64,000 nucleotides of DNA. Source: Tubulanus polymorphus. Its lineage: Eukaryota; Animalia; Nemertea. Numbering within the stretch: the first letter of the stretch is position 1; every line of letters starts with the position of its first letter. The notes under the pieces are model-generated. The model was not told the origin of the DNA, ran no database searches, and saw nothing but the letters and a program-made list of their open reading frames with translations. This document shows positions 7,516 to 63,745 of this stretch, piece by piece. Where the stretch lies: NCBI RefSeq assembly GCF_964204645.1, contig NC_134034.1:5554914-5618913 (forward strand), in the 5' to 3' direction. Position numbers and translations under genes: made by a program.

Positions 7516-7661
7516 CCGTGGAACCTCGTTACAACGAACTCGGATGCAACGAATTATCGGATATAACGAACATAGAATTTTGTCCCAAGTAAGACTATTT
7601 GATTAATTTCAGATCATATTTTCTGGTCCCGTGAAGTTCGCTGTAAGGAGCGGTTCCACTG
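7516..7661. mobile_element. Tc1/mariner-pogo (Tigger-like) MITE
   Basis: TA|CCGTGGAACCTCGTTACAACGAAC ... GTTCGCTGTAAGGAGCGGTTCCACTG|TA: imperfect TIRs with TA target duplication. Confidence 0.7.
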
Positions 7662-9963: not shown

Positions 9964-10303
<340 letters not shown>

Positions 10304-11105
10304 TGGTCAGGCATTGTTTTTGACACCGAGTTTGCCTGTAACTATGTTCAAACCAAACATAAACATGTCAGTAATAGTGAATTTTTGTGATAATTAGCTG
10401 TTGATTAGCTGCTTTAAACAATACTTGGTCATACTCGATGTCTACTCATCAAAACAATGCTGTCAGCCATACTTAACAAAGAAATAGTTATGTTACAAAA
10501 TAAATGGAATATGTAAACTCCAAAAAATAAGAATTAATGAAAATGAACAGTAAATTGTAAGCATGGCACTCTCTCACATGTCAGTTTAATGCTTATGTCA
10601 ACTTCAGTCACCCATTATAAATATCTAATAAACATTTTTGAGAGGGGAGATCAGAACAGAACAGAACAGTGTACCGACCTGCGAGTCGCGAGCTTTGACA
10701 TACATAAAATAGTGAGCACACCTCTTTAATAGTCTTTCTGCTAAATACGCACGGTATCAACTGGTCGACCAGAGCACGAAAGTTCATTTTTCTGCTGATC
10801 GTGGAATCGGACGAGAAGAAAGGATCGTACATTCGTTTCAGTTTGACATTATCTATTGCGTTGTGACCTGATCGCTTACAACTCCCGGCTGTGAGAAAAT
10901 GATAACCAAACCATTGCTTTGGATCATTTACTTGGGTGTTCTAAATGAATACACTCTGTCAGATTGCACTGCTTTGAAAAAGGCCAACGATCTTTCCGAG
11001 AATCGTCGTAAAAACTCATACAAAAACCGGTTTTGTAGCAGATTTTTGTTAAAGAAACCAGTTTTTTTTCGTTGACAACCCTGCTAAAATTATACACACT
11101 ATTTT

Positions 11106-11107
<2 letters not shown>

Positions 11108-11160
<53 letters not shown>

Positions 11161-11166
11161 ATATAT
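11108..11166. repeat. (TA)n microsatellite upstream of the lipoxygenase start
   Basis: Directly visible. Confidence 0.95.
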
Positions 11167-11263
11167 GTGGTCAAATAACTTATTGGAGGTAATCCGAAGT
11201 TCCTATCAGACGTATGTACATCTTGTGCGACTTGTTCTACAAGCAAAGGTTTTAGTTATCGCA

Positions 11264-25476
<14,213 letters not shown>

Positions 25477-28149: not shown

Positions 28150-29066
28150 GGGTGTCACTAAACCTAAGACCCCCCGAACCTAAGACCTAAGACCCGTTAG
28201 GTCTTATGTTTATGGGGTCTTAGGTTTAGCATATCATATATAGGTGTCACAAAACCTAAGACCCATAAACCTAAGACCCCCATATATCTCGGCCAAAGAA
28301 CACAAAAAACGAATTAGAGTCAGGTCTTATGTTAATAAACCTAAGACCCATAAACCTAAGACCTAAATGAACCAAATTTGAATAAATGATCCATCAATAG
28401 TGTATTCAAATTTGGTTCATTTATCAGAGACCAGATATTTGGGGGTCTTAGGTTTATGGGTCTTAAGTTTAGTATATTATATATAGGTGTCACTAAACCT
28501 AAGATAAGACCCATAAACATAAGACCTGACTCTAATTCTTTATTTGTGTGCTTTGGTCGATTTTAAAGGGTTCCAATATATAGGTATTAGTTAAAATGAT
28601 CCATCAATAGTCTATTGAAATTTGATTCATTTATCAGAGACCAGATATTTGGGGGTCTTAGGTTTATGGGTCTTAGGTTTAGTAGGTGTCACTAAACCTA
28701 AGACCCATAATTATAAGACCCGACTCTAATTCTTTATTTGTGTGCTTTGGTCGATTTTAAAGGGTTCTAATATTTAGGTATTAGTTAAAATGATCCATCA
28801 ATAGTCTATTTAAATTTGGTTCATTTATCAGAGACCAGATATTTGGGGGTCTTAGGTTTATGGGTCTTAGTTTTATTATATTATATAAAGGTATCACTAA
28901 ACCTAAGACCCATTAACATAAGACCTGACTCTAATTCGTTTTTTGTGTACTTTGGCCGGTATATTTGGGGGTCTTAGGTTTATGGGCCTTAGGTTTAGTA
29001 TATTATATATAGGTGTCACTAAACCTAAGAACCGATAAACATAAGGTCTTAGGTTTAGCGACACCC
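28150..29066. mobile_element. Foldback/MULE-like non-autonomous element with internal tandem and inverted repeats
   Basis: GGGTGTCACTAAACCTAAGACC ... GGTCTTAGGTTTAGCGACACCC termini, flanked by GCTCCATTT(G) 9-10 bp TSD (28140-28149, 29067-29076). Interior is built from AAACCTAAGACCCAT motifs in both orientations and ~200-bp repeat units. Confidence 0.8.
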
Positions 29067-32599: not shown

Positions 32600-33402
32600 T
32601 TAACCACAGTGACGATATGCCGGGTGACAGTCTCCATAGCCGAACGATGGTAGTGATTCTCTGAAGTCCGCATCCTCCAGGTCGGGGTGGTTTATGGTCC
32701 GAAATCCCGCTTTCTCGCAGTGCGTGTTTATCCGGTCTATGGGGTCCACCGTCTCTCGTTTTCCTCTCATAACAGGAGCTTTGGGCCAAAGGTGGAACAG
32801 AGGAAGGTTTGGGTATTTCCTAGCCAGAACATCGTATAGCGAGTAAATACTCTCCGTTGTCTGGCCATAGTTACGGACGTTATTAATACCGTGGTTAACA
32901 ACGACTGCACCACAGGTGACTCGTGTTGTTTTAACCCCCCCCCCCCCATCCAGCTGCTCCAGACGCTCCCCAGGGTGAGCAATGATGAACAGTTCGTTTG
33001 TGGATCGGGAATCTTTGAACATGGAGTCACTGAGGAGTAAAATCGGACTCCTAAGCTCCCCGACCTTCGCCGCACTGCCCAATACCGAAAATTTCGGGTC
33101 AAGTACGCTGCCCATTCCACCGTACTGGATTAAGGTCTTTTTCAGAACCTTAAACCGGCTAGTGGAGAGGTGGATTGGCGATCTCCTTGACGAAGCGACC
33201 GCTGCCTATATTCCCTGAATCACCGCACCCACCACAACCATTTTAGGGCCGTAAAGGTTTTCAACACATGACTGTACCAACTCACCCGCATTCAATTCAA
33301 ATAAGGGCTCCTGAGCCCGTGCAGCTTTCTCACGTCCTTGATGAGCTGACCCTTCAAACGCTTAGTCTTGGAGTTAAAGGCGTCCAATGTGGGAGAATCC
33401 AT
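32600..33402 (-). pseudogene. Extra ORF of the Gypsy element, SGNH/GDSL hydrolase-like
   Basis: ORF 32600-33115: ILLLSDSM (block I), AHPGERL (block II), VVVNHGINNV (block III), His near the C-terminus. The frame can be extended to an ATG at 33402 across one stop and one frameshift. Confidence 0.65.
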
Positions 33403-33477
33403 ATTTCAGTCTGTTCCTAAAAAGAGAGTAGCGACAAAACATTTCTATAGTTATGCGTTCTATGAGATTCAACCATG

Positions 33478-33797
33478 AATAATATTAATACAATAATATG
33501 TGTCTTATATAGCGCTAAATCCAGCCAGGCTGCTCAGAGCGCTTTACATTTTTTTTCGATATTATTACCCCGGCCAATCTTTACTCTAACATGTATCAGT
33601 CATCTCTCTCTGGCGAGAAGTAACACCGAGCTGCCAACAAACGCTCAGGAGTCATCTATCAGGCCAGGTACCCATTTACTCCTGGCTGGAGAGAGGCAAT
33701 GAGGATAAGTGTCTTGCCCTACGGCAATGTACGGGGTTCGAGCCCACGACCTGGCTTCCCAGAGTCGAGCGCTCTAACCGCTCGGCCACACCGCTCC
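33478..33797 (-). mobile_element. tRNA-derived SINE with L2-type 3' tail
   Basis: Minus strand: A box TGGCCGAGCGG, B box GCTCGAACCC, central GGGCAAGACACTT...GTAAATGGGTACC core, tail TGTAAAGCGCTCTGAG...AGCGCTATATAAG followed by ATT-rich repeats. Confidence 0.85.
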
Positions 33798-34888
33798 AAT
33801 GGAGGTGCTTTCTCTCCCATTCTCTAGCCATTTTGCCTTGTTGTCCATTATCACTAGACCAGCGCTGCTGACAGCAGGTGCATGTTTTCGATGAACCGAT
33901 ACATGACCTGGCGAACTCGCGGTATCTTACTGGTGGTCAAATAACATTCCGAGACCGAAGCTGGTTGCGATTGTCCTGGAAAACCTCAGCAGGCATCGCT
34001 GGAGCTTCGACTTGGTCGATGTCCGCTGCTTGCGGACCAGGCTCATTGTCAGTCCCCACCCGATCAGGGGTTAACTCCTCCTCAGACCCCGAGCTGTCCA
34101 AATTCATTTCTGGATTTCGGCGCCAGTAATAGGGAATATGGGGGTTCAAGCCAAAGGTCGAAGTGTCGAAAAATAAATTCTCGCACACTCGAATTTATTT
34201 TTCAACCCTTCCACCTTTGACTTGAACCCCCATATTCCCTATTCCTCTTAATAATATTCATATATATTATGAATATGAATAACTTCTAAAGTCGGAAGCA
34301 AATAAGAAGTACTACCGTTCAACATGTAAAATCAATATAGATAAATCAATATAATAAGGGTAAAAAATATTTTAAAGCGTAAGGTTTCAGCGAACTCTAA
34401 CAAAAAGTAACGAGTAATCAACGAGTTGATGAAAATATCAATTTTAATAAAAAAATTACTAATAAATTATGAATGAACAGATACTACCTAACAAAAAGTA
34501 AAGAGTAATTAACGAGTTGAAGAATATCAATTTTAATAGAAAAATTACTAGAAAAATTAGCTGAAAATATAAAATATATTGGCTGAAATATATAAAAATA
34601 GATTATATTATCACTATTTCTATACTTAGTTTAATAATTTATATTTATAATTTTTATAAAAACTAATTTATATATGTATGTATGAGAGGTACGAGTAAGA
34701 AACCAAGAATTCTTGCCATGAAAGTAAGAAAGTAAGAATTCTTGGTTTCTTACATATATAAATTAGTTTTTATAAAAATTATAAATATAAATTATTAATC
34801 TAAGTATAGAAATAGTTACAATATAGCTTATTTTTATATATTTCAGCCAATATACTTCACATTTTCAGCTAATTTAACAGTCTATTGC

Positions 34889-35191
34889 TTAATTTGAATT
34901 ATGTAATTTATCATTCAATTCGTGAATATATTTATGATTCCTTAATGATTTTGAATTTTTATATTTTTTATTGCATATTTCACAGCATTTAATATTATTA
35001 ATTCTATCTGAAATATAATTTATGTTTTCTTTTAATTCTGTATACCTAATTTTACAGTTATCATAAAATTCAAATAACTGTTTCAATGAGTAAACTGAGA
35101 ATGAAAATAAACCTGAAACCATAATTATTAATTTCAGTTGCTCTTGATTTCTGTAAATAAGATGTAATAAATTTAATATATTTTCACCCAT
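34889..35191 (-). CDS. Hypothetical 100-aa protein: hydrophobic segment, coiled coil, C2H2 zinc finger
   Basis: Intact ORF in very AT-rich DNA; CEICNKKYKNSKSLRNHKYIH fits C-x2-C-x12-H-x3-H; AAATAAATG start. Confidence 0.7.
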   Translation of the reverse strand: MGENILNLLHLIYRNQEQLKLIIMVSGLFSFSVYSLKQLFEFYDNCKIRYTELKENINYISDRINNIKCCEICNKKYKNSKSLRNHKYIHELNDKLHNSN

Positions 35192-35211
35192 TTATTTATT
35201 TAATTAATTCA

Positions 35212-35424
35212 CTAATCTGATTCAATATTAACTTTTTTATGAATATTTTTTCTGTGATTGTTTCCATTTAACTTCTTTAACTTTTTACTCAATTTCATAT
35301 TTTCATTCAATAGATCTTTACTGATATTTTCATAGTAAAAGTAATGTGCAGCCAATATTAACCCTCCAGCAACTAAATAATGTTTTAAATCACTTTTCCC
35401 AATTGGAATGCTGAAATCTTCCAT
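35212..35424 (-). CDS. Hypothetical 70-aa protein with one predicted TM helix and basic tail
   Basis: YLVAGGLILAAHYFYY hydrophobic stretch followed by a Lys-rich segment; AAATAAATG start; stop is 20 nt from the next ORF start. Confidence 0.6.
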   Translation of the reverse strand: MEDFSIPIGKSDLKHYLVAGGLILAAHYFYYENISKDLLNENMKLSKKLKKLNGNNHRKNIHKKVNIESD

Positions 35425-35547
35425 TTATTTAAGAAAAAAAATTAAAAGATTGATAAGGAATCTGAAATATCTTATTTTGAATATTTAGAGTTGAATTATT
35501 ATTTTTGAGTTATGATATTTTGATTTAAGATGGTGTGATTTATTGCT

Positions 35548-36060
35548 TCAAGTATAATATTTTCCACAATTACATAACGCTTTTTCATTAGGTTCATATT
35601 TAGGTGGTTCGATTTTATTGTCTAAATTACATTGAATTCCAACATCTTTGAATGATTTTTCATTTGGAATGTCAGGGATAAATCTTTTCTCTTGTAATCT
35701 GAAAAATAATACATAACATTCTCTGAAAGGGCAATAACGTAAGTGTATGAATAATGATTTGTGTGAATTTGCATTATTAAAAAGTGATTGCATTTCATCT
35801 GTAATTATCAAATGTTGATCTATTTCTTCAAATGTTGTGAATTTTGGAATTATTGTATTGAATAAGATATTATCTTTTTCATTCGAGAACTCTATCATTA
35901 GATAATGATTTTTAAACATTAATTCAGTAATATTTTTCACTTGAAAACGGAAACGTGCAGTTTTAATCAAATCTTTATTGGGAATAAAATTTTTAATTGT
36001 AAAATATTTTTCTAATTCATGTAAATCGATTTCTTTGAATTGTAGTATTTGTTCATTCAT
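35548..36060 (-). CDS. Hypothetical 170-aa protein of the hairpin-TIR element
   Basis: 510-nt open frame in very AT-rich DNA starting just inside the right TIR (TATAAATG). The C-terminal tail has KDVGIQC and PPKY motifs and a CNC. Confidence 0.7.
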   Translation of the reverse strand: MNEQILQFKEIDLHELEKYFTIKNFIPNKDLIKTARFRFQVKNITELMFKNHYLMIEFSNEKDNILFNTIIPKFTTFEEIDQHLIITDEMQSLFNNANSHKSLFIHLRYCPFRECYVLFFRLQEKRFIPDIPNEKSFKDVGIQCNLDNKIEPPKYEPNEKALCNCGKYYT

Positions 36061-36523
36061 TTATAAGTAATTTTTCTATTAAAATTGATATTTTCTTCAA
36101 CTCTTTAATTACTCTTTACTTTTTGTTAGGTAGTATCTGTTCATTCATAATTTATTAGTAATTTTTTTATTAAAATTGATATTTTCATCAACTCGTTAAT
36201 TACTCGTTACTTTTTGTTAGAGTTCGCTAAAACCTTACGCTTTAAAATATTTTTTTACCCTTATTGGAGATTTATCTATAGTGATTTTACATGTTGAATA
36301 GTAGTACTTCTTATTTGCTTCCATTTTTATATCAAATATTCTATTAAAATTGATTTTAGAAGTTATTCATATTCATATGTATGAATATTATTAAGAGTAA
36401 TAGGGAATATGGGGGTTCAAGTCAAAGGTTGAAGGGTTGAAAAATAAATTCGAGTGTGCGAGAATTTATTTTTCGACACTTCGACCTTTGGCTTGAACCC
36501 CCATATTCCCTATTACTGGCGCC

Positions 36524-39500
36524 GTACCAATACAAATGCCTCATCCTCCGACTCTGACTGTTCAGGGCTCGTCGGATGGACCGGCGGTTGGTGGGTTCTA
36601 AGGCGTCTTCGTGTTTTCATCCGCGATTTGTTTGGGGAAACCTCAGCTATGGGTCCATGACAGAGCTTCAGATTATTGAAATGCACTGTCCGAACCTTGG
36701 TGCCTAAACCCCCCTCCCACTGAACCCGGTAAGTGACCTCAGAGATTTTCTCAACAATTATGTGAGGACCCATCCAGCGCTTATGGAACTTGGCTGCCTC
36801 ATCAGTCTTGAGGGCATGGCTATACCTCCATACTCGGTCACCCACGTTGTACCCCCCACGCTGAGCAAATCTATCGTGATTTGCTGCCTGACGTCGTTGG
36901 GCTTTTCCAAGGCGGCCACGGACTCTCTAATGAGCTTCAGTCAGGTTTCTACACATGTCCTGGCTAAACTTGGTTAGGTGGAAGCTTCCTCAGGAGGGCT
37001 AACTAAAATGTCCAGTGGTAAGGTCATCTTACTGCCGAATGTCTTGAAAAATGGCGTTTCGCCAGTCGATTCCTGCACACTGGAACGAAAAGCCATCAAA
37101 CAGGACTGAAGTTTCTCGTCCCAGTCATTCCCCATGTCATTCACCGTCGTGGTCAACATTGATTTAATAGACTTGTTAAAATTCTCGACCTGGCCGTTTC
37201 CCATGGGGTGATAGGCGGTCGTTCTAGTCTCTTTTCAATCTCAAGCAGGCTCAACATCTCACTGAAGAGTCGAGATTCAAAATTGGATCCAAGGTCCGAA
37301 TGAATACTTTCGGAGCATCCGTAGCGTGTGATCCACTGGTTCACGACCTTCCTGGCAACTGTTGGTGCATTCTGGTTTCTAGCCGGCCAGGCCTCAACCC
37401 ACTTGGTGAAAGCGTCCTGCACCACAATGATATAAATATTCCCACGTTTTGTTCGTTGCAGTGGGCCAGCAATGTCGATATGCAGCCTTTGTCCTCTCCT
37501 ACCGATTGGCATTGGTACCAGTGGCGCTCTAGGTCGTTTAGGAGGGTTTTTGCATTGCTGATATTTACGACACTGCTTGACAAAGCTATTGACTGCCTTC
37601 GCCAGTCCAAAACGCCAAAACCGTTGGACTTTACGTTCTGTCTTAGTGGTCCCTAAGTGCCTACCGGATATACCAATATGGAGGTGAGATAGGACCTTAG
37701 GTAATAGCACATTTGCCAGAACTACCCGGTTTTTGGCTAATCTGGCACCAGGAAGTGGTTTCAGAACAAGCAGGCTTTCTACCACAGCCAAGCGTTCAAA
37801 TTCGCCCAAAAGAATCCTCACGTTCGAACCATACTGACACAGGGAATCAGTGTTTGACTTTTGTAAACCCTTTCGGACTAATTCCTTGACTACTATCTAA
37901 TGTCATCATCGGTATCCTGAGCATCACCGATCTCGACCGGAGTTAGGACATCCCCTATACCAATTGTTTGCAGGAATGACACTGTTGGAATTCCGGTAAC
38001 GCCGCAACTAGGGAAATCTCCATTACGCTGGACCCTCTTGGGAATCCGCGAGAGTGAATCAGCGTTTTGGTGATTGCGCCCGGGCCTGTGCTCAATATCG
38101 AAATCGTAGTCCGCCAGCCTTTCATTCCAGCGGGCGACTTGGCCTGATTGAATATTGGATGGCCGAAGCCACTTTAGGGCTGCGTGGTCAGTCCGGACAA
38201 GGAAATTACAGCCCAATAAGTAGTGGCGGAAATAGTCAACTGATTCGACTAGAGCAAGCATTTCTCGCTTCGTGGCGCAATAGTTCTCCTCCCCGCCTCT
38301 CAAAACTCGACCCCCATATGCTATTACTAGTGTGATCGCTTTGAAACTGTGAAAGAACTGAACCTATAGCCCAGTTACTAGCATCCCAATCAACTATGAA
38401 TTTCCACGATCCCTCTGAAAAGTCAGGGAAAGCCAGTACTGGAAGGCTTGTCAACGCAGATTTAATTCCTTCGAATGCTCCTTGCTGACTTATACCCCAT
38501 TCGAAAGGCTGACCCTTCTTTGTGAGCAGATGGAGGGGTTTACACATTTCCGCAAATCCCTTGATAAATCTTGAATAGTAAGTGACGAGGCCAGTGAAAC
38601 TTCGTACTTCTGATACATTAGTAGGGGCTGGCCAACCTATGACTTTGTCAATTTTTGCCCGGTCAGTTTCAATTCCGTTCCTGCTCATCACATGGCCCAA
38701 GAATTTTAACCGCTTTTGGAGGAGTGACCTTTTCTTGGCTTCAATTTCATATTTGCTGCTTTGAAACAACCGAATACCTCTGACAGCTAATAGAAATGTG
38801 TGACGCCACATCCGCAGAGTGGACTATGACATCATCGAGGTAGATCAAGGCTTTTTCCATAACACCTTGTCAAGAGCCAAAGACATGAGCCGTGTGAAAC
38901 AGGCCGGAGCATTTCTGAGACCGAATTGCATAACATTCCATTCCCACAAACGGTTCTCAGAACAAAAAGCTGTTTTTGGTTTGTCACATTGTTGGATCGG
39001 CACTTGCCAGTAGCCACTGGTCAGATCCAGAGAGGAAAACCATGACGATCCCGAAAGCGCCTCGAGGGTAGAATCTATTCGCCCCAATGGGTGACTGTCT
39101 TTAGTTGTGACGTGACGTCGTTTTATTTCCTGTAGTCACAGCACAGACGCAAACTGCCATCACTTTTCTTGGCTAGGACGATTGGGCTAGCCCAAGGCGA
39201 CTGGGATGGCCTTATAAGACCTTGGTCACACAGTTCTGCAGTGTACCCCTCAACAAATTGCTTGTAACGGGGCGGCAGACGTCGTTGATGCTGCCTAATC
39301 GGCTTCTGCTCCCCGGTATCGATCTCAAACTTTATGAGGGGTGTCCTCCCAATATCAAATTCCCCCCTGCCCCCGAGAAAATACACCCTGATGCTGCGCT
39401 AGGACCCTCTTAAAATCCTTCCGATCACCCTCCGAAATCTCGAGACTATCGACATTTAGTTCGTCGTAAAGACCCTTTAAATCATGGGGATCCTGCTGGG

Positions 39501-39670: not shown

Positions 39671-39793
39671 CCCCTTTGGAAAATCCTAGATCCGCCCTGC
39701 CCCTGGAGAATCTGTTTAAAGCTAAAATTTCGTGAAAGTGGCTATTTAGCTTAAGAAATCGCCATCTTGATTCTAGTCGAGGCATACGTATTT

Positions 39794-40940
39794 CGGTGTT
39801 GTCATATCGCGGAAAGACGGAATCGCGGAATTTTCCAAAAACGCGGAATTTCTTCATTTTTACTATAAATAGTAAACGGGTTTTCCCACGGGGATACCCA
39901 CTGTCAGACAGGGCACCGGACCCAGCTTTTCAACACTGGGAATTAGTATTTGATAATTTATTATATCGCTAGTCAACAACTTAACGATACTGTTCCAAAT
40001 AATGGAGAACCTAGGCAATACGTGCTTTGCGAATTCAGTGATACAGAGTATCGCTGCATTAACTGAATGAATACAAATCGATGGTACGTAAACGTAGGAT
40101 TTGTGACACCATGGGTCATTCTCAAGGACTCACTTCCGAGGTAAGATTTGACTCTGGTCTCTGGATTTAAAACATTGGAAATGAATTGATTCTAAGTGAC
40201 TCAGAGTTAACTCACAACTGTGGAACTGGATCGATGTCAGACGAAAATAAATAGACATTATGTGTATTTCATTCTGGTTTAGGATTGTTCATGCGTGTTG
40301 TGTGTCTACATTGTTGTAATAAGCGAAGAATGTGGTTTATCTTTTAGAATTAAATGATATGAAAGATTATAAAATGGTTTCGTTTTTTTAATGTTTACTT
40401 TGTGACTGCTATAACATATATGTTCCTATGCTGATTATTTGGATCAAAAGAATCTTATTCGTACCGGTACTGGACGACCGTAAAATTATAATGATTTCAA
40501 AGGAATTGGAACCGGTACTTGTTTGGTCGTAGGATTTCGTGTTTGCAACCATCTACAACTACAGTCCGACACCGCGAACGTGCTCAATATTTATCTGATA
40601 ATATTCGTTTCTGAAGTTCTCAAAAAGTCGATGAACTTCGATAGTCGAAGTTTGCCTAGTAGAAATAGACATTAGGTGCCTGGTCTCTTTCACCTCACTT
40701 GATTCTGACTTCTTCTACAGGTGGCAGCCAGTCAACGGTATCGTAATATAATGATTCCATATAAAATTGCCTGCAAATAATGGGATTCGAACCTTAGTCG
40801 TTGCATCGATCGGTCCGGTGCCCTGTCCGACAGTTGGTATCCCCGTGGGAAAACCCGTTTACTATTTAAAGTAAAAATGAAGAAATTCCGCGTTTTTGGA
40901 AAATTCCGCGATTCCGTCTTTCCGCGATATGACAACACCG
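39794..40940. mobile_element. Non-autonomous MULE-like element, ~130-bp TIRs, 9-bp TSD
   Basis: CGGTGTTGTCATATCGCGGAAAG... (39794-39922) is the near-perfect reverse complement of 40812-40940; TSD TACGTATTT at 39785-39793 and 40941-40949. Confidence 0.88.
40002..40070 (+). pseudogene. Ubiquitin-specific protease (peptidase C19) Cys-box fragment inside the MULE-like element
   Basis: Translates to MENLGNTCFANSVIQSIAALTE*, matching the USP Cys-box pattern N-L-G-N-T-C-[FY]-x-N-S-x-[LI]-Q. Confidence 0.65.
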
Positions 40941-41257
40941 TACGTATTTTACTCCACGTGTGTCCTGCCGAGTGGATGCATAAACATATGACAATTATAA
41001 CAGGATAAATCATCAAAGTGTCCAGAGAACTTTCCACAAAGTCCGAGACCGAATCAAGACGAACGGACATGGTTGACATTCTCTGTGTTAAATGGGGCCC
41101 GGACTAAAAAATAAGACAGACATTTCAAGAATTTATATCAAAATGATTATATTATCAATATCATTATTATCATCATTTTTATTTGATCGTCATACATAAT
41201 TCACAATTACATAATATATGGAATAGGCTGCAATGGCCCTTAATTCCAGAGAGAAAA

Positions 41258-42298
41258 AAGAAAATTAATCTTAATAAATTAGTTGACGCCTGGGAAAAAA
41301 GTGTAGACGTATAGATGGATGAGCTAATGTAGGATTGCAAATTTGAAATCGAAGTTTAAAGAAATTTGGGGAATTGAGTTGGCGATTGGGTAGGTGATAC
41401 AGCCTTTCGACTGTATAGTGGTTTAATTTTTTTATTACAAATTGTCAATTTTACTTTTGCCCCTAAGCTGGTCTGCAACTTCATTGCATTCATGGCTGAG
41501 GAAAAAGCTCTTCTGATGTCTGCTTCATCATGACTTTGGAGCATATCGTGTGGCCTAGTCCAGTCGGTTTGGCTGCCACTCGAGAATCCTCGGATTGACA
41601 TTCTGGATTGAAGTGGACGTCATTTGAAATAACTTGTTTATGTTATTCTGTATGAATGACGCATGTGTTTTGTATTTTGTGTTTTGTATATTGTATTTTC
41701 TTTTTTTTAAATTTGTAACTTAAATGAATTTGGGAATCGGATCAATAAAGAATTGAATTGTCCCCTGATACACATGCCATCAGAGGACGCGGAGCCGTAA
41801 TACGACAGCTATGCTGTTATAAATTGCTAATCGGGACGATCGTTCTCATGAAACCTACATACCCCTAATATCGCACATATTTTCTAAAATATTTGAATAT
41901 TGTTTACACATTTTTATATTGACCGCTTGTAGCCGCCGATAAAATGCACGCCGGCCCTACACAGATCATAGATAGCTTCGTCATTCCACCAGCATCCCCA
42001 TGTCAGGGTCTTACTTTTATATCAGACTTCCGCATCGTGTTTACATCCGCAATTTTGACCGAAATATCCGATTTACTATTCAATGCAATATAATATTTCG
42101 ACGTTCAAATATGGCTCATATAATCACAGGAAGACATTATACATCTTTGTCAATGATATTTGCCAAATAGCTTGAATGTGTACACATAGACCTGTGACGT
42201 TTTGCACATCGATTTACGGTTGTGATTTGTAAAATGACGCTGAATGGTTAACATTGTTTAGGTTTCATAATGGCAACGTTTTATAAAGCGTCAAAAAA
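41258..42298. repeat. ~1-kb segment, inverted diverged copy of 62568-63745
   Basis: Colinear reverse-complement matches throughout, e.g. GATTGCAAATTTGAAATCGAAGTTT, CTTCTGATGTCTGCTTCATCATGACTT, GACCTGTGACGTTTTGCACATCGATTTACGG. Confidence 0.85.
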
Positions 42299-46881: not shown

Positions 46882-47170
46882 CTTGAAAAAAAGAAATGAT
46901 GATAACGTTAAGTATTTGTCAGTGTCAAATTTGACCTGCAGTTTTTTACGCCGTTAAAACTCACTGTTACAACAATGTTTTTATACATTACTAATATGAC
47001 TACCGTACTCTATATGTTTTAATGGCAATGGGGAGCTACGAATATCGATCGGTCACTACGCGGCGCTGAACGCAACTCGGGCTTAAAGATTTAATTGAAT
47101 TGTATTGAATCGGTATTTACGCTGAATTGGAGGTTTTTTCGTTGTAACAAAAGCTCTGTTTTAGTAGAAG

Positions 47171-48848
47171 ATGCCAACTGAGTGTTGTGTACCTATGTGT
47201 AAAAATAGAGGAGGTCATGCTTTCCCGAGATCAGATGAAAAGCGGTTCAAAGCCTGGAAAACCGCTGTGCGACGAGGTGAAAGTTCATGGAATCCTACAA
47301 AGCACTCTGTTGTATGTCCGATGCATTTCGATGATAACGACTATATGGGAATCACAACGTACGGTAAGTCATTTTTTATACATTTTGTTATTTCACTAAC
47401 TATTCAGTTCAGAGCCAAGATGAGGTATTTTGTTGAGAGAAACCAGATTCTGTTCAATGTTATTGTATATTGTATATCTGATTTTAATACTCCTACACTC
47501 TGTAGGCTGCAGATCTTGTTGACTTGTAGTAGTAATACCATATCCTACTGTCTGTTGTTTGATTAAATCAGCTAATTTTGTGATTTTATTTTGAGGGACT
47601 GAAAGACTGCAACGACGAGAAAACTGCTGTCCCACACATTTTTCCATGGACCAAAGAGCCAACACCAAGTATAGTCGATAGGAGGCTGCGGGCCAAAAGG
47701 ATACAAGAGATCGAAAATGTTGCAGAAATAGAAAGTCAGAAACATCAGAAACTGTGTGATAATGCCAACACATCATGTGGCATAGATATGTATGAGGAGA
47801 CCATCGTGGATGAAGATCATAGCTCAGTCCCAGGTACAGGAATAGTTTTGATTTCATTTGTCTTTAGGACGCTCGGTGCTAGTAAAATATATGAATTTCT
47901 TGATTCACAATAGTGATCACATTTGGTTTTTTTTTCAGACTGTCAGTCGGAAAGAGGTGAAATAAAATCAGTTAAAGATGTAGGAACACAATGTAGTAGA
48001 TCGACAGCCAGATTTTCAGTTGAATTCTTCATCAATGATCCAGAGGGAATGCATTATTATACAGGACTAGTGATGTGAAATTCATGCTAGTATTCCTGTC
48101 ACTCGGACCAGAAGCTAATAACCTAGACTATTAGCATGGATTTACACCCCCGTTACCAGTCCTAATTTCGGACTGTCGAGAACATTTGACATATCACTTC
48201 ATCACGTATCGAATATATTTGTCACCCGGATAAATTTTATGTCATGCCAATGGAGTGAGTTTAATTGGTGGCCAGATGAGGATCTTGTTTATTTCTTCTG
48301 TCCCAAAGATTTCAAAGCAAAATATCCAACAACTAGAGTCATCCTTGACGGCACAGAATACCCGATTAAAAAGCCAAAAAATCCTCTCCTCCAGCAGGCA
48401 ACTTTTTCATCATATAAAAACAGAAATACGGCTAAGGTAGTGGTCGGCTCAACACCAAGTGGCTTGATATCATATATTTCTGATGCGTATGGCGGTGCAG
48501 CAAGTGATCGACAAATCATAGAAATAAGTGCAATGCAAGATATGTGCACTTCAGGAGACAGCGTAATGGTTGATAAAGGCTTTAACGTGCAGGACTTATT
48601 TGTAGCGTCAAATGTATCGATAAATATGCCAAAGTTCTTTAAAAACAAAAACCGCTTGAAAAACAATACTGTTTTGTGACAGGAAAATTGCAAGAGTGCA
48701 CATCGAACGACTTATAGGACTAGCCAAAACATACAAAATCCTCACACATCCATTGAATAATCATGAAATACCCCTGGCGACAGAAATTATGAAAGTCTGT
48801 TGCTACCTGTGTAACTTTAGAGAATGTATCGTTTCAAAAAATGCTTAA
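47171..48848 (+). pseudogene. THAP + HTH + DDE_Tnp_4 transposase (spliced, disrupted)
   Basis: THAP: CCVPMC..FP..W..VCPMHF (exon to 47363), AVPHIF in the next exon; MHYYTGL; catalytic ILDGTEYPI, VMVDKGF, RVHIERLIG. Stops and frameshifts present. Confidence 0.88.
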
Positions 48849-48899
48849 ATTTTGAAATAAGATTTATTTCTTAATGTTGACATCTTAGAAAGAATAATC

Positions 48900-49443
48900 A
48901 TAATAGTTTCTGTACAAGAAGTTATTTAAAACTGTATCTTTGTGGAATTCTGAATGAAATTTCATTAAATTTTCTACCATTGCTTTAATGAAATCGAAGT
49001 CAAATCAATATGAATTATTTTAATGTCTTTCAGTGTAAATACCACAAAATCACACTCTGTACGACCTGAACAATATAACTGTCCTTGTATTTGATAAAAA
49101 TAGTCATGGTTTCTTTTAAGTTGCTGGTTTCTGTTAACGTCCAACTCCAAGTGCTGAACAGTTTGTGGGTTGATTTCTTTATCTTTCGCAGAAAAAGGGC
49201 ATTTGACTTCCAAAATTAAAGTATCATTAACAACGCGATCAGGGGAAGCCGCTAAAACAGGGTGATCTTTGCTGACAAATAATCCACACTCATTCGTTAT
49301 AGATCCTGTTCTACTATGATACTTTTCCACAGCAACCTTCTCATATTTTTGGCCATGGAGTACGCATTAGTTTTTAACGTAATGTCCGTTACTAATTCTT
49401 GCCCCAACTTATTGCGCAATTTATTTCTTCTTTCTGTGGCTTT
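48900..49443 (-). pseudogene. YqaJ-like (lambda exonuclease family) gene, 3' part
   Basis: HGQKYE..ECGLFV..HPVLAASPDRVV..ILEVKCPF..YFYQIQGQLYCSGRTECDFVVFT: PD-(D/E)xK YqaJ motifs. Confidence 0.88.
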
Positions 49444-50603
49444 TTTTTTTTTTTTTTTTTTTTTATTTATTTGGCTGGTAAATTTTGTTTGATTTTTCGA
49501 TTGAGTGTCCCTTACAGACCCACCACACCTGCCGGGAGCGAAACAGGGGGTTTGATTTTGAAATCGGAAATCGAAGTACAGATATAGATGTGTGATCGGC
49601 GGTCGAGTAAACAGAATATTTTAAAATCGAAGTACATAATTGGAAATTCGGTTCCGGTTCATCCAAACAATCTTCCATTCAGTCTGAACTGGCAAGCGAC
49701 TGATTGGGATGAATTTTTCTGGCTGCCTAATTTAATACAATGAGATTCTGGAAATAGCTATATTACAAGATCATTTTGTCCATTTTTATATTTTTTTGGT
49801 CGTTTTCTACGTGTAAATAGTCCGATAGTTTAGTGTGGTTTTTTTCCTCGGGTAGATGTTGATGTAGAAGTCCTCTAAGTTGATGATCCCGCGTGTTGAC
49901 TAGATAGGAAGAAAGCACATATCGAAACGCAAATTTTCCAGATGAGAGTATGGCCCTGGGGTATCCGAAGTGTAGTTGTATGACATCGACGGTGCAGCTC
50001 CGATTAGGATGGGTTTCTCCGTCAAGGGGTGCGCAGTTGGTACTTCACATCTGGTGCTGAATTTGCCTAAAAGTATAAGTTTTACACTGGGAGCAGTTAT
50101 GTGTTTCTAATATACAGTGAGTTAGGTCCGTGAATGTATCGCAATCAAACGGACAGTGCTATGCGTATTGATAGACCGTCAGTAAGAAAGCGGCACAGAC
50201 ACGTGAATATTGAATACATGTTTGTACACTTACATATATACAGTCTTGATCGGGTTTTATTTACATTGTCACGATTAGATTTTTGGTAGCTTTTAATGAG
50301 ACTGATGTCAAGAGGCAACTTTCCAGTCACCATTGCGCGTAGATAGACTGAGCTTGCTATCCTAAGGTCACAAACGGAGGCAGCGTTCCAGCTATCGTGG
50401 CAATGAGACTGAGTTTACAGTCAAAACATCAGAAACAGTAAACTAATAAACTAATACGTATGTGATGATATAGAGCAAAAGTGGTCAGACAGTTCTATGC
50501 GTATTGATAGACCGTCATCCCTGTTCGATCTAAATCAGAACATACCTCGAGTGTAAAAGTCGGGATATGTAGGTGTAAGTAATAAAAAAGGCGTTGTGTT
50601 TAA

Positions 50604-53600
50604 TTAATAGACTACGCTAATGGTGTCGATTGTGATTCTGTTTACTGCATTCAGTCCGTTTGCATCCAGGTGTATAAGTACATTGTTAAGAGTCCAAATA
50701 TGAAGGTTTTGTTGAAGCATGATTTCTTGGTTTAGGCGATCTATTAGCGAGTTTTTGAAATAAATTATAGTGTTGATGCGGCCAGAGCCTTGTTCTAAAT
50801 TGTAGTGATTTTTGTACAAAATGGATTGTGCAAGAAACAAAAGGTAGTTCGCGAGTGTGCGTTTGAAGAAATCTCTTTCTATTGTTTTAGTAATTCCTGT
50901 GTAGACGATGTCTTGAGTGATATTTATTGGTGTGTCTAGTATGCGTTGAATGATTGGTTGTATAGATGAATATAATTGCTGTGCTTCTGTGCATGAGAAT
51001 ACTACATGGTCATTCGTTGCCGTGCGTCCACAAATTTTACAATTTGGATCAGTTTTTATTTTCCTAGTTTTGAAGCTGTTGCCAGAGTATTATGCAGTAA
51101 TTTCCAATGAATATCACTAAATCGTCTATCAATATGTTTATTATAAACTTCATTCCAAAATTCCGGCCAGTTCAGATCAGCATTTAACATTTCAGTAATT
51201 TTGGTTTGCCCTATCGGTGTGATTTGATGGAGATTTTTTAATAATAGAATTCGATAAATTTGAGATGATAAAAGTTTTCCTATAGTGCACACTATATTAC
51301 CAAATTGTACATAGATTTTTGGTAATTCATCGGGATCTAAATTTTGGTTAGACAGAATTAGTTTCCAATGTTGCGGTATCGCATTGTATATACATGTGTG
51401 TTTAAATTTATTTGTTAATGGAATTTCGTTAAATGCTTTGTAGTTTCCACGATTATCGAATAGATGTCGTAGATTGATTATACCGTGATGTATGTATTCT
51501 GTGAAATTGGTTTTCTTGTTGAGCTTAATTTTTGGGTTGCCAAAAATAGGTTTTTGCAGAATTTCGGTAATGGTCTCAGTTGTAACTAGATGTTGTTGAA
51601 AAACTGTCCATGATTTTAATAAATGTCTGTAGTAGTCATTTGTAATGACTTTTTTGGGTATTTCATTGTGAATGATGTTTGAAATATTCCAGCCTGGGCC
51701 TAGATATTTTTGCAGATTGTAGTTGATAAGTGGTTTCCAGTGTGTTGGTTTTAGAGCGTGGTTTATTATCGTCTTAATTGCCTGTGTTTGTTGTCTGTAT
51801 TTAATGTTGTGTAAGTCGAGACCTCCGTGTTCGATTTTTTTATGTATTATGTCTTTACTGACAAGGCGTTTTCCATTATCCCATAGGAAATTGATGATGT
51901 TTGGTTCAAAGATTTTGATATATTTATCTGGAATTGGGAAAATCTCGGAAGTGTACCATAATATAGGTAGTATAAAAGAGTTTATGACAACCTTTTTGCC
52001 ATGTAAAGATAATTTAGTTTGGCGCCAAAGATTTATGATATTTTGAATTTTATTTATTTTCGGATTCCAGTTTAAATCATCAGTATTTTCATTGCCGAAA
52101 TGAATTCCATAAACTTTCATTGATTTCTTCCAATTTAAGTCTAAAGGTTTATCGTTTCTAGCTTTCCAAGATCCTATCCACATACACTCAGTTTTATCTT
52201 TATTAATTTTTGCACCTGATGCTCTTTCAAACAGAGTTAAGGCTGTAAGGACTTGATTCAATGATTCTAAGTCGGTTAGACATAATGTAGTGTCATCTGC
52301 AAATTGTTTGATTTTAATTTCTGTGTCATCTGGTAGTTTTACTCCTTTGATATTGTTGTTTTCGCGTATTTTAATTGCTAATGGTTCCGCTGCTATTATG
52401 TAGAGTATTGCGCTCATGGGACATCCCTGTCTTACGCCTCTTTCTAAGGTGAAGGGTTTAGTTAAGAAGCCGTTACTTTTGATTCTGGATTTTGGATTTG
52501 AATAGCAAGTCTTGATGTACCGAATTAGATTTTCTCCAAAACCGAAAGATTCTAAAGTTTTAAACATATATTGCCAGTCAACACGATCAAAAGCTTTCAT
52601 TTGATCGATGGTCACCAAAAATGCTTCTAAATTATCATTATTAACGTAATCAATTAAGTCTCTTATGATATGACCATTGTCTTATATTCGACGTCCCTTT
52701 ACGCTACATGTCTGGTCTGGGTGTATTATGTCTGTTAGACAGTTAATTAATCTGTTAGCGAGAACTTTTGTGAATATTTTGTAATCTGTACATAGTAATG
52801 AGATTGGTCTCCAATTTTTCAAGTCTGTTTTGTCATTTTTCTTATGAATTAATGAAATAATACCAGTTTGCATTGATTTAGAAAGTCTATTTTCTTGTAT
52901 ACACGCATGTACTAATTGTAGAAAGTCATTTTGGAGAGTATGCCAAAATATTCTATAAAATTCAATAGGTAGTCCGTCTATACCAGGGGATTTATTATTT
53001 TGGAAAGATTTGACTGAATTTGTTAATTCATTGATATCTATTACGGAGTCATGCTGGAGTTTCTTTTGATTAGAAATTTTAGGTAGATTACTCAGGAAAA
53101 GATTTTGGGTTTCTAAATCCGTTTCTTCTTTTCTATATAAGTCTTTATAAAATTTTAGTTGAATTTTTTCAATGTCTTTTTGACCAGTTTTAATTTCACC
53201 CAGATTATTTTTGAGAGTCCTGATGTGATTCTTTTTAGCGCGTTGTTTTTCATAATTTGCAAAGAAGGTACTTGTTTTCTCCCCAAATTCTCTCCACTCA
53301 ATTTTAGATCTTATCATTGCACTTTTTGCTTTTTCAATGTCGAAGTCACGAATACGCTTGGTAAGATATTCAATTTGATTTTGGTTAGTGTTTACTCCTA
53401 AATCAGAAAGTTTTTCGAGAATGAATAATTCAGATTCTAATGATTTCTTAAGATTGTTTTTAATTCTGCGGAGTTCTAATGCAAATTTTATAGATCTTTG
53501 TTTTATTTGAATTTTGCCCTCTTCCCACCATTCAATAATCGATTCATAAAACTGTATGTGATTTTGCCATTGATTCCAAAATTCTGTTATCACAGTGATG

Positions 53601-54421
53601 TAATTAGGGTTTTTAAGTAGTTCTTTGTTGAGATGCCAGTATCCCTTGCCACGTTTGACTTGAGAAGTGTTAATTGTCAATTCGACGATCTTGTGATCGG
53701 AATGAATAGAGTTGATATGTTTCACCTGTTCTATGTCTGGCTGTAAAGTGTCTGATACATAGAATCGATCTATTCTTGTTTTAATGACGTTGTTATTGCG
53801 TTTTGCTACTCGAGAGAAAGCTGGTGTGTCTGGGTTTTTAAGTCTGTAAGCGTCTGCTAATCTGTTTTGTTGACATAAATTAGCTAATTGTTCTGAACCA
53901 CTACGTATTGATGAATTGACGGATGTTGAATCACGATCTATGGGACTTTCTATACAATTAAAGTCTCCGGCTATTATTGTATGCTCATTAGGGTTTATAT
54001 TAAGATAATTACTGATATTGCTTATGAAAATTTTCCTATCACGTTCCTTATTTGGGGCATATATGTTAACGATATTGTAAATTTGGCTGAATAGGGATAT
54101 TTTCAAGGATATCAATCTCCCTTGTCTATCTACAGTCTTATCTAAAATTGTATAGTCTAAAGATTTTCGAATACCAATGGTTACCCCACATTTTCTTTCG
54201 TTTATAATATTAGATATAATTTCAAAATCTTTCCTCAAGGGCTTAAATATTTTTTGAACTTCATAGTCATTCGATATGTGAGTTTCTTGAAGTAAAATGA
54301 TATCATAGTGTTTAAGTCTTTCAAAAATGCCAACAATTCGAGCATTCGAGTAAACTAAGCCGTTGCAATTTAGTGATAGTAATCTAATACGTTCTAACAC
54401 GTCCGCCATTTTATGTCTCAT
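50604..54421 (-). pseudogene. Tx1-like ORF2: APE endonuclease + reverse transcriptase + C-terminal CCHC
   Basis: SLNCNGL, LLQETH, NIYAPN, IAGDFN, RIDRFY, SDHKIV; KSPGIDGLP, WRPISLL, KAFDRV, GVRQGCPMS, FADD; C-terminal CKIC..H..C. One in-frame TAA at 52682-52684 and one frameshift near 51056. Confidence 0.93.
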
Positions 54422-54457
54422 TTGCCTACATTAGTAAAACGTTATGAATACCTCACC

Positions 54458-55471
54458 TTAAGTAGTTTTTTTGGTCTTTGATTTAGTTCCATTCTTTGTT
54501 TGATTCCTTTTCTGCATTCGGACTGGTGCTGGTGGCCCAGTGCTTGGTTTTGTTGTTTTTGCAGCAACTTCGCACGTATCGTCCGTGTCACTTTCTTCGT
54601 GTTCGTTTTCTGTTGGCTTCTGTATTGGTGAGCTTTCTCCTTCCGAGGGCGGCTTTGATTTTTGTGATTTTTTCGGAGTTTGTACCAGTTCAGTTGGGGA
54701 GGGTGGCCTCTTCCTCGACTCCTCAGTGACAACATCCACTTCTGTCGTCGCTTCATCCTTCTCCTCCGTTGCCTCTGCTGGTGTTGGGTTTCTTCTTTTC
54801 ATCGATTGTAAAGAAACAGCCTGTCGAAAGTGGAGTTGACGGCATCGATCTGGTGTATGGGTTGGGTGGGTACATGTAACATTGCACTCAACCCAGGTAT
54901 GGTTAAATTGTCCGCATATTGAGCAATGTTCGGGCTGTCCGTTATAATAGACCCGTACAAGGAGTAAACCATAACGTTTGGAATCCAGAGTAATGTTTCT
55001 CGGGATTGGCGATGTAATTGCCACCTCCAGTACGCGTTTCTCCCCGTTCTGGAAAGTTGTTTTTCCCATCGTCGGGTGATAGGATCCCGTAAGAATGTTT
55101 CCATATGGCCGGATCATCTTATCTACCGCTTCATGAGGGCAGATCGCCGGAATACCCTCGATTCTGACAATGGTTGGTGTTTCAAGTGCCGATCGGAAAT
55201 TTATCGTTGCTCCTCTGAATGTAATCCTGTGTTTTTTTAGAATTTCGTACTTCTCCGGGGAACCACAGAATACTCCTACGTTATAAGCGTTGAAATCGAT
55301 CACTTTTTCAACGCACTGCCGAGCTGTATCGTCAGTCGCCAGAATTTCACAGTTTTGTGAAGTATCAAGTTTGTTATACTGTACCCTAATCTTAGGGATC
55401 AGTAAGAAATTTTCGAAATCCTGAGCCATCGAATTATCGTATTTAAATGCTTTCACCTGGTGTAAAGCCAT
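54458..55471 (-). CDS. Tx1-like ORF1 (gag-like, zinc knuckle, low-complexity tail), 337 aa
   Basis: Intact ORF upstream of ORF2: IVRIEGIP, NGEKRV, VYYNGQPEHCSICGQFNHTWVEC (CCHC knuckle). Confidence 0.88.
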   Translation of the reverse strand: MALHQVKAFKYDNSMAQDFENFLLIPKIRVQYNKLDTSQNCEILATDDTARQCVEKVIDFNAYNVGVFCGSPEKYEILKKHRITFRGATINFRSALETPTIVRIEGIPAICPHEAVDKMIRPYGNILTGSYHPTMGKTTFQNGEKRVLEVAITSPIPRNITLDSKRYGLLLVRVYYNGQPEHCSICGQFNHTWVECNVTCTHPTHTPDRCRQLHFRQAVSLQSMKRRNPTPAEATEEKDEATTEVDVVTEESRKRPPSPTELVQTPKKSQKSKPPSEGESSPIQKPTENEHEESDTDDTCEVAAKTTKPSTGPPAPVRMQKRNQTKNGTKSKTKKTT

Positions 55472-55570
55472 ACTGAGTTGAAGACTGGTTCAAAGGTCGA
55501 TTGAAACGAGCGCGCCGAAAGTACGTCTGTACAGTAGGAGTGTCGTGGGGCTTTTTTTTTTTTTTTTTTT

Positions 55571-56830
55571 TTCTTTCTGTGGCTTTAGCGATCGTTCCAA
55601 ATTCTGTTATCCGCATTTCTCTCTCTCGTTTCCAGGTGACGTTCGAAGTTTGACCTCTGGTATTCAATTCTATTAATTTGATTTCCTCATCTGTAATCGT
55701 AGTCAACTGAAAAAGAACAGCAAATGATAATTACCAGTTTTTGTTAATACCCATGAATTCAAAAGGCTTGAATCATAAACATTTCACCAGCCAGGAACTT
55801 GTCCACAGGGTCTAATTTCAAATAATCATGGTCTAGGTACAACGCATGAGGATTGGCCGGTGGAATAAGATGCATAACTGCCATAGTACCTCCATGGATG
55901 GCATAGTACCTCCATGAATTACATTATTTATAACATGAAATAATGCTGATAGAGTTAATTTTTCAAAATATATTTTTTATACCTGATAATTTATACACAT
56001 GTTCCTAAAATTTGTCGCACATAATTGACGATTTTTGTACATAGATTTCCTTGGATCGAAGTTCATACTCTTCGTAGGTGAAATAGGTTGCAATAGCTGA
56101 TTATGACTAACAAGTTTGACGGGACTTCCTAAATGGGGTTTCGTACGATGAAATGTCTGAAGAGTCTGAATGAAAAATAGAAGAAAATTATGCTTGTCAA
56201 TTAAATGCAACATGTTACCAACAAAGTATGCAAAAAACCTCATATTTACCTGGGTGCATGTCACTTCTGTTATAATTTTCTTTTCCTCTTTAAATTTGTA
56301 TGCAGCATATAGAACTGTTGTCACATGCTTGCAATGAGCGTTCGGGCCCTGACCGGCTCCGCATTCACACTGGACCTCAACAACTACGCCACAATTATCA
56401 ATCACTACATCTACCTTGTACGAAACGGATTTCTTCATTTCAGCCCACATAACTGAAGTCAAATAAACTGATGACGCGCTTTTTGATGAGGATATTCGCA
56501 AAAAGCGAAGTAATCTAAAAAATTATAAGAAATAACCATGTTTCATATAGAAAATTTCCTGACACAATGTTGGCTTACTAATATGTAAGGCTACATTTAG
56601 AAAATGTAAGCAAAGCCTACCTACCTCTGCTCATATAAATCTTAAATTTTCCCATCAAATGCCTTATCATATTGTTTTAAGTATTCATTTATCCTCTCCA
56701 TATTCACTTTTGGCACCATTGCATACATTTCTGAATGTAAATCCTTGTAGGACTTCTGGTCTGGAAGTTCCATGCTGTACTCCGACTCTATAGTGATGTT
56801 GACCTTATTCGTTTTATAAAATTCTAACCT
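55571..56830 (-). pseudogene. SWIM zinc finger/YqaJ gene, 5' exons
   Basis: VWAEMKKSVSYKVDV..CECGAGQGPNAHCKH (SWIM) TCTQ|TLQTFH; IELNTRGQTSNVTWKREREMRIT is the YqaJ N-terminus that continues at 49443. Confidence 0.8.
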
Positions 56831-62567: not shown

Positions 62568-63745
62568 TTTTTTGACGCCTTATAAAACGTTACCATTATG
62601 AAACCTAAACAATGTTAACCATCTAGCGTCATTTTACAAACGACAGCCGTAAATCGATGTGCAAAACGTCACAGGTCTGTGTGTACACAAACAAGCTATC
62701 TGGCAAAATATTATTGACATAGATGTAGAATGGCTTCCTGTGATTATATAATGACCTATATTTGAACGTCGAAATATTATATTGCATTGAATATCATTAG
62801 AAGACGTATTGTAATAGTAAAGGATGTATGATTATATTAGAAGCGGCAGGCATAAATAGAAATGATAAGTAAATCGGATTATTCGGTTAAATGGCGGATG
62901 TATACACGATTTGGAAGTCTGATATAAAAGTCAGACCCTGACGTGGGCATGCCGGTGGAATGACGAAGCTATCTACGATGTGTGTAGGGCCGGCGTGAAT
63001 TTCATCAGCGGCTACAAGCGGTCAATATGAAAATGTGTAAACATATAATTTCAATATTCAAACGTTTTAGAAAATATGTTTGATATTAGGAGTATGCAGG
63101 TTTCGTGAGATTAGCAATTTATAATAGCATAGCTGTCATATACGGCTCCGCGTCTTCTGATGGCATGTGTATTAGGCGACAATTCAATTCAATTCTTTAT
63201 TGATCCTTATTACATTGAAATTCCGGGATAAAATTCCCAAATTCAATAAATACAAATTCTAAAATAAATTAATACAACATACATGACACACGGGTAATTC
63301 ATACAGAACAACATAAGCATGTTATTTTAAATGACAATGTCTACTTCAACCCACCCAGACTCAAGACTCTAGTGACAGCCAAACCCGTGGCCCGGCCGGG
63401 CCGGCTGGCTAGGCCACACGATATGCTCGAAGTCATGATGAAGCAGACATCAGAAGAGCTCTTTCTTCAACCATGGAGGCTATGAAGTTGCAGACCAGCT
63501 TAGAGGCATAAGTAAATGAAGTCGGTCGCAAGTTCGCGATCAATTATTGAGAATTTTCAATAAAAAAATTTAAACTACTACTAGAGTCGAAGACCCGCTG
63601 TATCATCTACCCAATCGCCAGATCTCATCATTCCCCAAATTTCTTAAAACTTCGATTTCAAATTTGCAATTCCACATTAGCTTAGCCCAGAAATTCTACA
63701 TTTTTTTCGCAGGCGTCAAATAATTTTCTAAAATTAATTTTCTTG
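62568..63745. repeat. ~1.1-kb segment, inverted diverged copy of 41258-42298
   Basis: Reverse-complement colinearity with several indels. Confidence 0.85.

Follow-up and report, generated by a model that had tools for sequence, protein, structure and literature searches.

Replication of animal Polintons (Mavericks) is generally ascribed to a protein-primed polymerase, and the (AGT)2 tandem at the ends of vertebrate Mavericks is believed to serve protein priming. The hallmarks that the locus described here shares with these animal elements are reportedly those set out by Kapitonov and Jurka in 2006. Hairpin ends are found in homotelomeric parvoviruses (AAV and densoviruses), in which a longer inverted repeat is tipped by a hairpin of about 120 nt that is identical at both ends. 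Transpovirons, small parasites of giant viruses, are AT-rich. In the genome of the protist Halocafeteria seosinensis, palindromes within the terminal inverted repeats (TIRs) lie beside the target-site duplication (TSD) in integrated virophages of subtypes 1, 2, 5 and 6 and in the Polinton-like virus (PLV) of subtype 4 (10.64898/2026.07.28.741278). According to that 2026 preprint, these palindromes occur mostly with replicases other than pPolB and with particular RVE integrases, and hairpin priming was proposed for the protist virophages and PLVs, with accidental annealing allowed as an alternative (10.64898/2026.07.28.741278).

The window, by which we mean the whole 64-kb stretch of DNA that was analyzed, is animal DNA and harbors an element of 2393 bp at 34125..36517 (no strand assigned). 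The termini of the element read AGT...ACT and are abutted on each side by GGCGCC, the left copy of this TSD lying at 34119..34124 and the right copy at 36518..36523 (both on the plus strand). At 23.7% GC, the element was far more AT-rich than its flanks of equal length (47.5% and 48.3%), so that the size, ends, flanking repeats and base composition given in the original prediction were all borne out; GC in the window beyond the surrounding Gypsy element was mostly 33-41%. The insertion lies in the decayed remains of a Gypsy element, recognized by the Pfam domains rve and Integrase_p58_C, and the C-terminal frame of the Gypsy integrase (Integrase_p58_C) runs on the minus strand from 36926 to the insertion (36518..36926) and continues past it (33937..34118). 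When 2399 nt were taken out, frame 36926-36518 came into register with frame 34118-33940, by arithmetic only, in agreement with the earlier claim that excision restores the Gypsy integrase frame. That claim had also been used to confirm a 6-bp TSD. The length of 6 bp held, on the evidence of the flanks of other copies presented below, but the frame argument by itself did not: GGCGCC is palindromic, frame restoration at one site fits a duplication of 6, 4, 2 or 0 bp equally, and a single site thus cannot fix the boundary of the element. No further copy of the element was found in the 64-kb window.

Contigs of three public runs (X1, X2 and X3, from one study and two samples) were used to define the boundary and the copies of the element. 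The share of the element's words present in these runs was 0.26, 0.10 and 0.07, respectively, each run having part of the element, and X1 may derive from the same source as the window. Boundary mapping was performed on 34065-34275, and among the rows listed (18 of 88 loose-end rows) contigs with loose ends at 34125 numbered 22 in X1, 12 in X2 and 9 in X3. The flanks of these contigs were unrelated (agreement of 0.40-0.48, with a median loose length of 101-255 nt). Among the same rows, 8 contigs of X1 stopped at 34124, while one contig of X2 and two of X3 stopped at 34123; the X1 split between 34125 and 34124 (22/30) is about that expected from one-base chance matching (81%). Some of these loose ends may instead reflect contigs that run on from the hairpin's inner arm, but their low agreement speaks for many sites. 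Since the unrelated flanks of other copies end at AGT, the element starts at AGT and the duplication at this site is 6 bp; TSDs of 4 bp (CAGT..ACTG) and 2 bp were ruled out by the same flanks. The TSD pair was read at one site only, and the family boundary comes from the flanks of the other copies. Empty sites also exist: a contig of X1 jumps exactly 2399 nt at the insertion point, and contigs of X2 and X3 track the Gypsy flank to 34124 and then depart.

The element belongs to a multicopy family with many copies. In X1, the summed depth over the interior was 2,178-14,782 (13 bins of 34492-36103) compared to 172-495 over the Gypsy flanks, where single contigs were at about 35-48. Summed depth is not itself a copy number, and we estimate from it that the copies number in the tens to low hundreds. 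TIR depth per end was about 2-3 times that of the interior, and in X1 a core of the terminal hairpin had a summed depth of 62,000-85,000 compared to 15,000-22,000 on the outer arm (4-5 times). Loose ends at 34168/34169 and 34202 flanked this core, with other arms attached. Related elements with different interiors thus exist, and the surplus TIR depth is a hint of ends shared with an autonomous element. The whole element is covered by no single contig, and the linkage of its parts in the other copies is one that we infer. A higher ratio of element to Gypsy depth in X1 than in X2 and X3 was considered as a sign of amplification and rejected, as library GC bias fits this difference: the gap between X1 and X2/X3 narrows on the GC-richer hairpin arm.

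The TIRs were measured at 425 bp (left, 34125..34549, plus strand) and 452 bp (right, 36066..36517, minus strand, with 29 nt extra), matching the predicted 430-450 bp, and differed by 12 mismatches over 420 aligned bases and a few indels, the largest of 29 nt. Each TIR terminates in a hairpin of 122 nt (left, 34125..34246; right, 36396..36517). The left hairpin has arms of 56 bp, a loop of 10 nt and 5 mismatches (z of about -14); the right has 4 mismatches (z of -14 to -16). The two hairpins are mirror images of identical orientation, each 122-nt tip by itself reads AGT...ACT, and folding was better than in 200 of 200 shuffles on each of the four strands (z of -14 to -16). A core of 34 nt (34169..34202), composed of the stem tip and loop, is common to related sequences with other arms. 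The terminal motif AGTAAT matches 5 of the 6 letters of (AGT)2, and no variant was listed at 34125-34162 in the runs. At the mirror positions 34164 and 36478, both ends of the window copy share letters from which nearly all of the run depth differs; therefore, one end was once copied from the other, which is what replicative Polinton-type models require.

Two further repeats were identified. A 91-nt tandem repeat lies in the left TIR (34397..34559, plus strand), where the opening codons of ORF1 recur in its unit, and in the right TIR (36042..36220, minus strand), where the inner unit continues into the start of ORF1. An AT-rich palindrome of 322 nt (34554..34875; z of -24) lies between ORF3 and the left TIR, 14 nt beyond the stop codon of the former and 5 nt away from the latter. 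A search of 33400-36700 against Rfam gave no matches. The 122-nt hairpins, the most telling feature of the element, had been overlooked in the original prediction, as had the palindrome, the tandem repeat and the TAAATG starts described below.

Three co-oriented open reading frames were found on the minus strand, each with a TAAATG start: ORF1 (35548..36060; 170 aa in the window copy), ORF2 (35212..35424; 70 aa, basic) and ORF3 (34889..35191; 100 aa, with a hydrophobic stretch, a long predicted helix and a C2H2 finger). This set is not due to chance, as a co-oriented set of 170, 100 and 70 aa was absent from all 2000 first-order Markov resamples. The number and orientation of the ORFs were as first described, but they are not all intact. 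ORF1, the start of which is 6 nt interior to the right TIR, is cut short by a stop codon (35548-35550) particular to the window copy, and the contigs covering this codon differ from the window in all three runs. When the frame was read with X at this break, 20 more codons were open (35485..35547, minus strand) and completed a zinc-finger-like motif of the form C-x-C...H-x5-H; by a crude null, an open stretch with such histidines arises 0.2% of the time. The window copy is ageing, as its ORF1 stop is absent from the copies in the runs. In the runs, one contig skips 116 nt of ORF2. TAAATG was found at 3 of 3 ORF starts compared to 2 among the 39 remaining ATGs of the minus strand (Fisher P of 0.0009, noticed post hoc), and at 0 of 36 plus-strand ATGs of the element and 78 of 2407 ATGs in the rest of the window. 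ORF3 has a single C2H2 finger, below the Pfam cut-off, and is the only ORF to come near a membrane-span score (1.46). The longest ORF being 170 aa, no pPolB, RVE integrase, ATPase, protease or capsid domain was present, in line with the absence of these enzymes that had been noted beforehand.

Homologues of the ORFs were sought in sequence and structure collections. For ORF1, none was found with a word index of proteins near its length and, for the read-through form, of longer proteins, by full phmmer search against 1.84 billion representatives, or in the ESM Atlas, PDB sequences, Pfam and PHROGs; metagenome contigs likewise gave none (0 of 92), and of three candidate stretches in viral contigs one passed tblastn, had no locus and was set aside. 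No sequence homologue of ORF3 was found (0/17), and ORF2 matched no family of Pfam or PHROGs. ORF2 and ORF3 were also considered as paralogues, and direct comparison detected no relation. In the ESM Atlas, ORF3 fell among generic single-finger proteins at a score of 0.86, which is a lead only; of the 10 clusters listed, 4 were of Nucleocytoviricota and 4 of Archaea. As to the zinc-ribbon protein of transpovirons, which is homologous to Sputnik V14, the element offered a generic C2H2 finger only, and no sequence homologue was found. Single-sequence models were poor (pLDDT of 41 for ORF1 and 64 for ORF3), and fold searches with them returned nothing usable (best Z of 4.9). DNA patterns of the terminus and hairpin core had 0 matches in viral and metagenome contigs.

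Differences among copies gave a weak signal of selection on the ORFs; such selection may date from a parent or from the short form itself. Of 397 difference rows, 40 were examined and 16 of these were within the open frames. Among these listed rows, 5 of 9 ORF1 differences were synonymous compared to 22% expected (P of 0.029; 5 of 10 and P of 0.048 with the stop included), whereas ORF2 had 0 of 2. For the three ORFs pooled, 6 of 13 listed differences were synonymous (P of 0.046; with the stop, 6 of 14 and P of 0.066). This pooled count sets apart a block of three adjacent rows, in which all letters of one ORF3 codon are changed and serine is kept. Of 79 indel rows, 12 were listed, and the one that lies inside an ORF is in frame.

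The locus resembles Polintons/Mavericks in its 6-bp TSD, AG...CT ends, intronless ORFs and accessory genes beside the TIR, and its TIR length is close to the vertebrate Maverick mean of 402 bp (PMC8097293). By contrast, Polintons/Mavericks span 12.7-24.6 kb, compared to 2.4 kb for an element devoid of pPolB, integrase, ATPase, protease and capsid genes, and Polintons/Mavericks end in the tandem motif (AGT)2, as in vertebrate Mavericks, or (AG)3, where the element has AGTAAT and hairpin tips (PMC8097293). The msft-1 element of C. briggsae was considered as a precedent for a non-autonomous Maverick and rejected, as msft-1 is a MULE. The virophages and PLV of Halocafeteria, like the element, have a palindrome at the tip of a long TIR beside the TSD and a GC content below that of the host; they are often nested in other mobile elements, as the element is in Gypsy, and fragments retaining TIRs and TSDs were reported. 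The Halocafeteria elements are about 24 kb, reside in a protist and carry capsid, replicase and integrase genes, with palindromes of 52 nt in subtype 5. The element differs in that it resides in an animal genome, measures 2.4 kb, has a hairpin of 122 nt and lacks a capsid module, a non-pPolB replicase and an RVE integrase. Compared to the homotelomeric parvoviruses, it has no Rep/NS1 or capsid gene and made a clean 6-bp duplication on insertion.

A link to transpovirons had been drawn on account of a C2H2 protein. Transpovirons are described as carrying 6-8 genes, one of them for a superfamily 1 helicase, and as known only with mimiviruses, and the element is like them in its small size, the logic of helper dependence and a stand-alone zinc-finger gene (PMC3671162). 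It differs from them in having three small ORFs and many chromosomal insertions. Transpoviron identity was rejected, as no ORF is long enough for a helicase, no Pfam match to one was obtained and three genes were present as opposed to 6-8; what is left of the proposed link is one generic C2H2 finger.

Taken together, we consider the element likely to be a non-autonomous member of the Polintons/Polinton-like viruses, with a borrowed integrase and hairpin priming as the most likely mechanism (probability of roughly 0.6). Helper-dependent insertion of the Polinton type, as originally proposed, is the best fit because the family is multicopy and enzyme-less and combines long TIRs and AG...CT ends with a duplication of 6 bp. 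A duplication of 6 bp is characteristic of Polintons and is also made by IS3EU/GingerRoot, the ends of which are TA..TA (or TG..CA) (PMC10045372), while Ginger1/Ginger2 have TGTNR ends and TSDs of 4-5 bp (PMC2836005). IS3EU/GingerRoot was rejected since the element ends in AG..CT, and Ginger1/Ginger2 on both ends and TSD length; with these ends differing and 6 bp being the Polinton duplication, a borrowed integrase of the retrovirus type is likely. The enzymes are likely borrowed from a larger relative, and the hairpin tips likely point to copying that is hairpin-primed rather than protein-primed. In such a scheme, the element would be freed as a single strand or linear duplex while a helper is active. 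The 122-nt tip, which folds back by computation, would then offer a 3' end to a polymerase of the helper or host, and copying through one end would template the other and keep both TIRs alike. The integrase of the helper would recognize AGT...ACT and insert with a stagger of 6 bp, this footprint being the one observed. We regard the three intronless ORFs as likely accessory genes of viral origin that probably came from the end region of a larger parent; ORF1 and ORF3, by their zinc-finger-like motifs, would act on nucleic acid, and transcripts would end at the 322-nt palindrome that follows the last gene.

Other explanations of the locus were weighed against this reading. Contrary to the original prediction, the element could be what a simple internal deletion left of a protein-primed Polinton, with the ORFs as passengers from the end region of the parent and the hairpins and palindrome as fold-back accidents without a role. 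The start of ORF1 just inside the right TIR, a site where Mavericks have accessory or cargo genes, is compatible with this possibility, as is a palindrome that adjoins the left TIR like a repair scar. One X1 contig, moreover, links the end of ORF3 directly to the TIR without the palindrome (34888 to 36300), the surplus depth of the TIRs implies ends common to other elements, and broken copies exist, as seen from the ORF1 stop and the ORF2 skip. We nevertheless regard such a remnant as unlikely. The hairpin is a family trait, in that positions 34164, 34204 and 34212, which are mismatched in or near the stem of the window copy, mostly have other letters in the runs, and related sequences retain the hairpin core with other arms. 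In addition, the X1 bins at the junctions of TIR with palindrome and of palindrome with ORF3 (2,619 and 4,022) were as deep as the ORFs; therefore, the short form itself was amplified.

Still less probable is a satellite of a large DNA virus (poxvirus-like or another of the Nucleocytoviricota), with viral late promoters and hairpin-primed replication, and with the Polinton-type integrase serving for insertion only. TAAAT(G/A) is the late initiator of vaccinia (PMC5294985), and all three ORFs of this very AT-rich, intronless, hairpin-ended element start with TAAATG. A short AT-rich motif, however, could be an ordinary start context of the parent. The single-finger proteins of Nucleocytoviricota among the listed ORF3 clusters (4/10, at 0.86) are a lead only, with Atlas scores below 0.9 and archaeal clusters that score equally, and many germ-line insertions demand a nuclear phase. 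Similarly improbable, in our view, is a foldback or composite transposon of the cut-and-paste type that has a 122-nt palindromic MITE as its building block and owes its mobility to a DDE transposase with duplications of 6 bp and no relation to Polintons. In favor of this origin are the AGT...ACT ends of each tip, the 4-5-fold depth of the core over the arm and an X1 joint (34190 to 36463) that would fit a solo hairpin, although its short side is just 26 nt. In X1, however, the summed depth of the TIR beyond the hairpin was about 38,000 compared to about 42,000 for the hairpins; therefore, most hairpins sit within long TIRs. The other published superfamily found with 6-bp duplications has TA..TA ends, and the compact, intronless, AT-rich ORFs are unlike fragments of a host.

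Under the preferred reading of a hairpin-primed, non-autonomous Polinton-type element, a wider proposal can be framed, which we put forward tentatively and consider rather doubtful: that the animal genome hosts integrase-using DNA viruses that are hairpin-primed and dispense with a protein-primed polymerase, of which the element would be a satellite with three selected genes, pox-type TAAATG starts and tens to hundreds of germ-line sites. Hairpin tips plus three orphan genes are the traits that distinguish the element. The full-text literature searched, which lacks most subscription papers and Repbase, yielded no account of a mini-element in animals that has hairpins at the tips of its TIRs; Repbase files such non-autonomous families by ends and TSD (PMC4455052). 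Within this literature, the only hairpin tips in TIRs that we encountered were those of integrated protist viruses with other replicases. That a high-copy, enzyme-less animal element retains its hairpins shows these to be among the cis parts carried along. If the ORFs are selected within the short family, the element would parallel, in an animal, the satellites known from giant viruses. The terminus and the 34-nt core provide a handle for finding the helper and make the priming model testable in an animal.

Elsewhere in the window, several degenerate transposons were observed, as was a bHLH gene at 3191-3925 (Pfam HLH), which we take from its motifs to be Twist.

The stem tip and loop of the left terminal hairpin of the element (hairpin core, 34169-34202) were found in many more contigs of the public sequencing runs X1, X2 and X3 than were the outer parts of the stem (arms), and diverged arms were detected joined to this core in contigs of the same runs. 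Taken together, these results revealed that related hairpin-ended families exist in T. polymorphus, and it is among these families that the helper, the larger element proposed to supply the integrase, should be sought.

The Gypsy element that hosts this insertion was also found to carry, about 330 nt from it, a very high-copy short repeat (about 33500-33800), whose summed depth in X1 contigs reached 46,000 (a sum of contig depths, not a copy number). A tRNA-like head was detected on its minus strand near 33735-33790, and no call was returned for the repeat by ARAGORN or Rfam; it is likely a SINE. An ORF downstream of the Gypsy integrase (32600-33205, minus strand), with a faint match to GDSL/SGNH hydrolases (E 0.08), is possibly an additional ORF belonging to the Gypsy element.

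Other repeats were detected in the window. An ISL2EU-like transposon (47168-56522), with THAP, DDE_Tnp_4 and YqaJ frames and a frame at 55977-56522 that we take from its motif to be SWIM-like, was broken up by a minus-strand LINE of the L1/Tx1 type that has long open frames (50604-55489). An element of about 1.16 kb (39784-40947), with 139-bp inverted ends (96% alike) and short duplications around TACGTA at these ends, is likely a non-autonomous DNA transposon. Two mutually inverted copies of a ~1 kb repeat (41254-42298 and 62568-63748; 77-91% likeness), spaced 20 kb apart and with no TSD seen at either, probably represent two independent insertion events. A palindromic, internally repeated array (28151-29052) was built from the CCTAAGACC motif.

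The single-exon bHLH gene on the minus strand at 3191-3925 (Pfam HLH), which resembles Twist in its motifs, marks the window as animal DNA.
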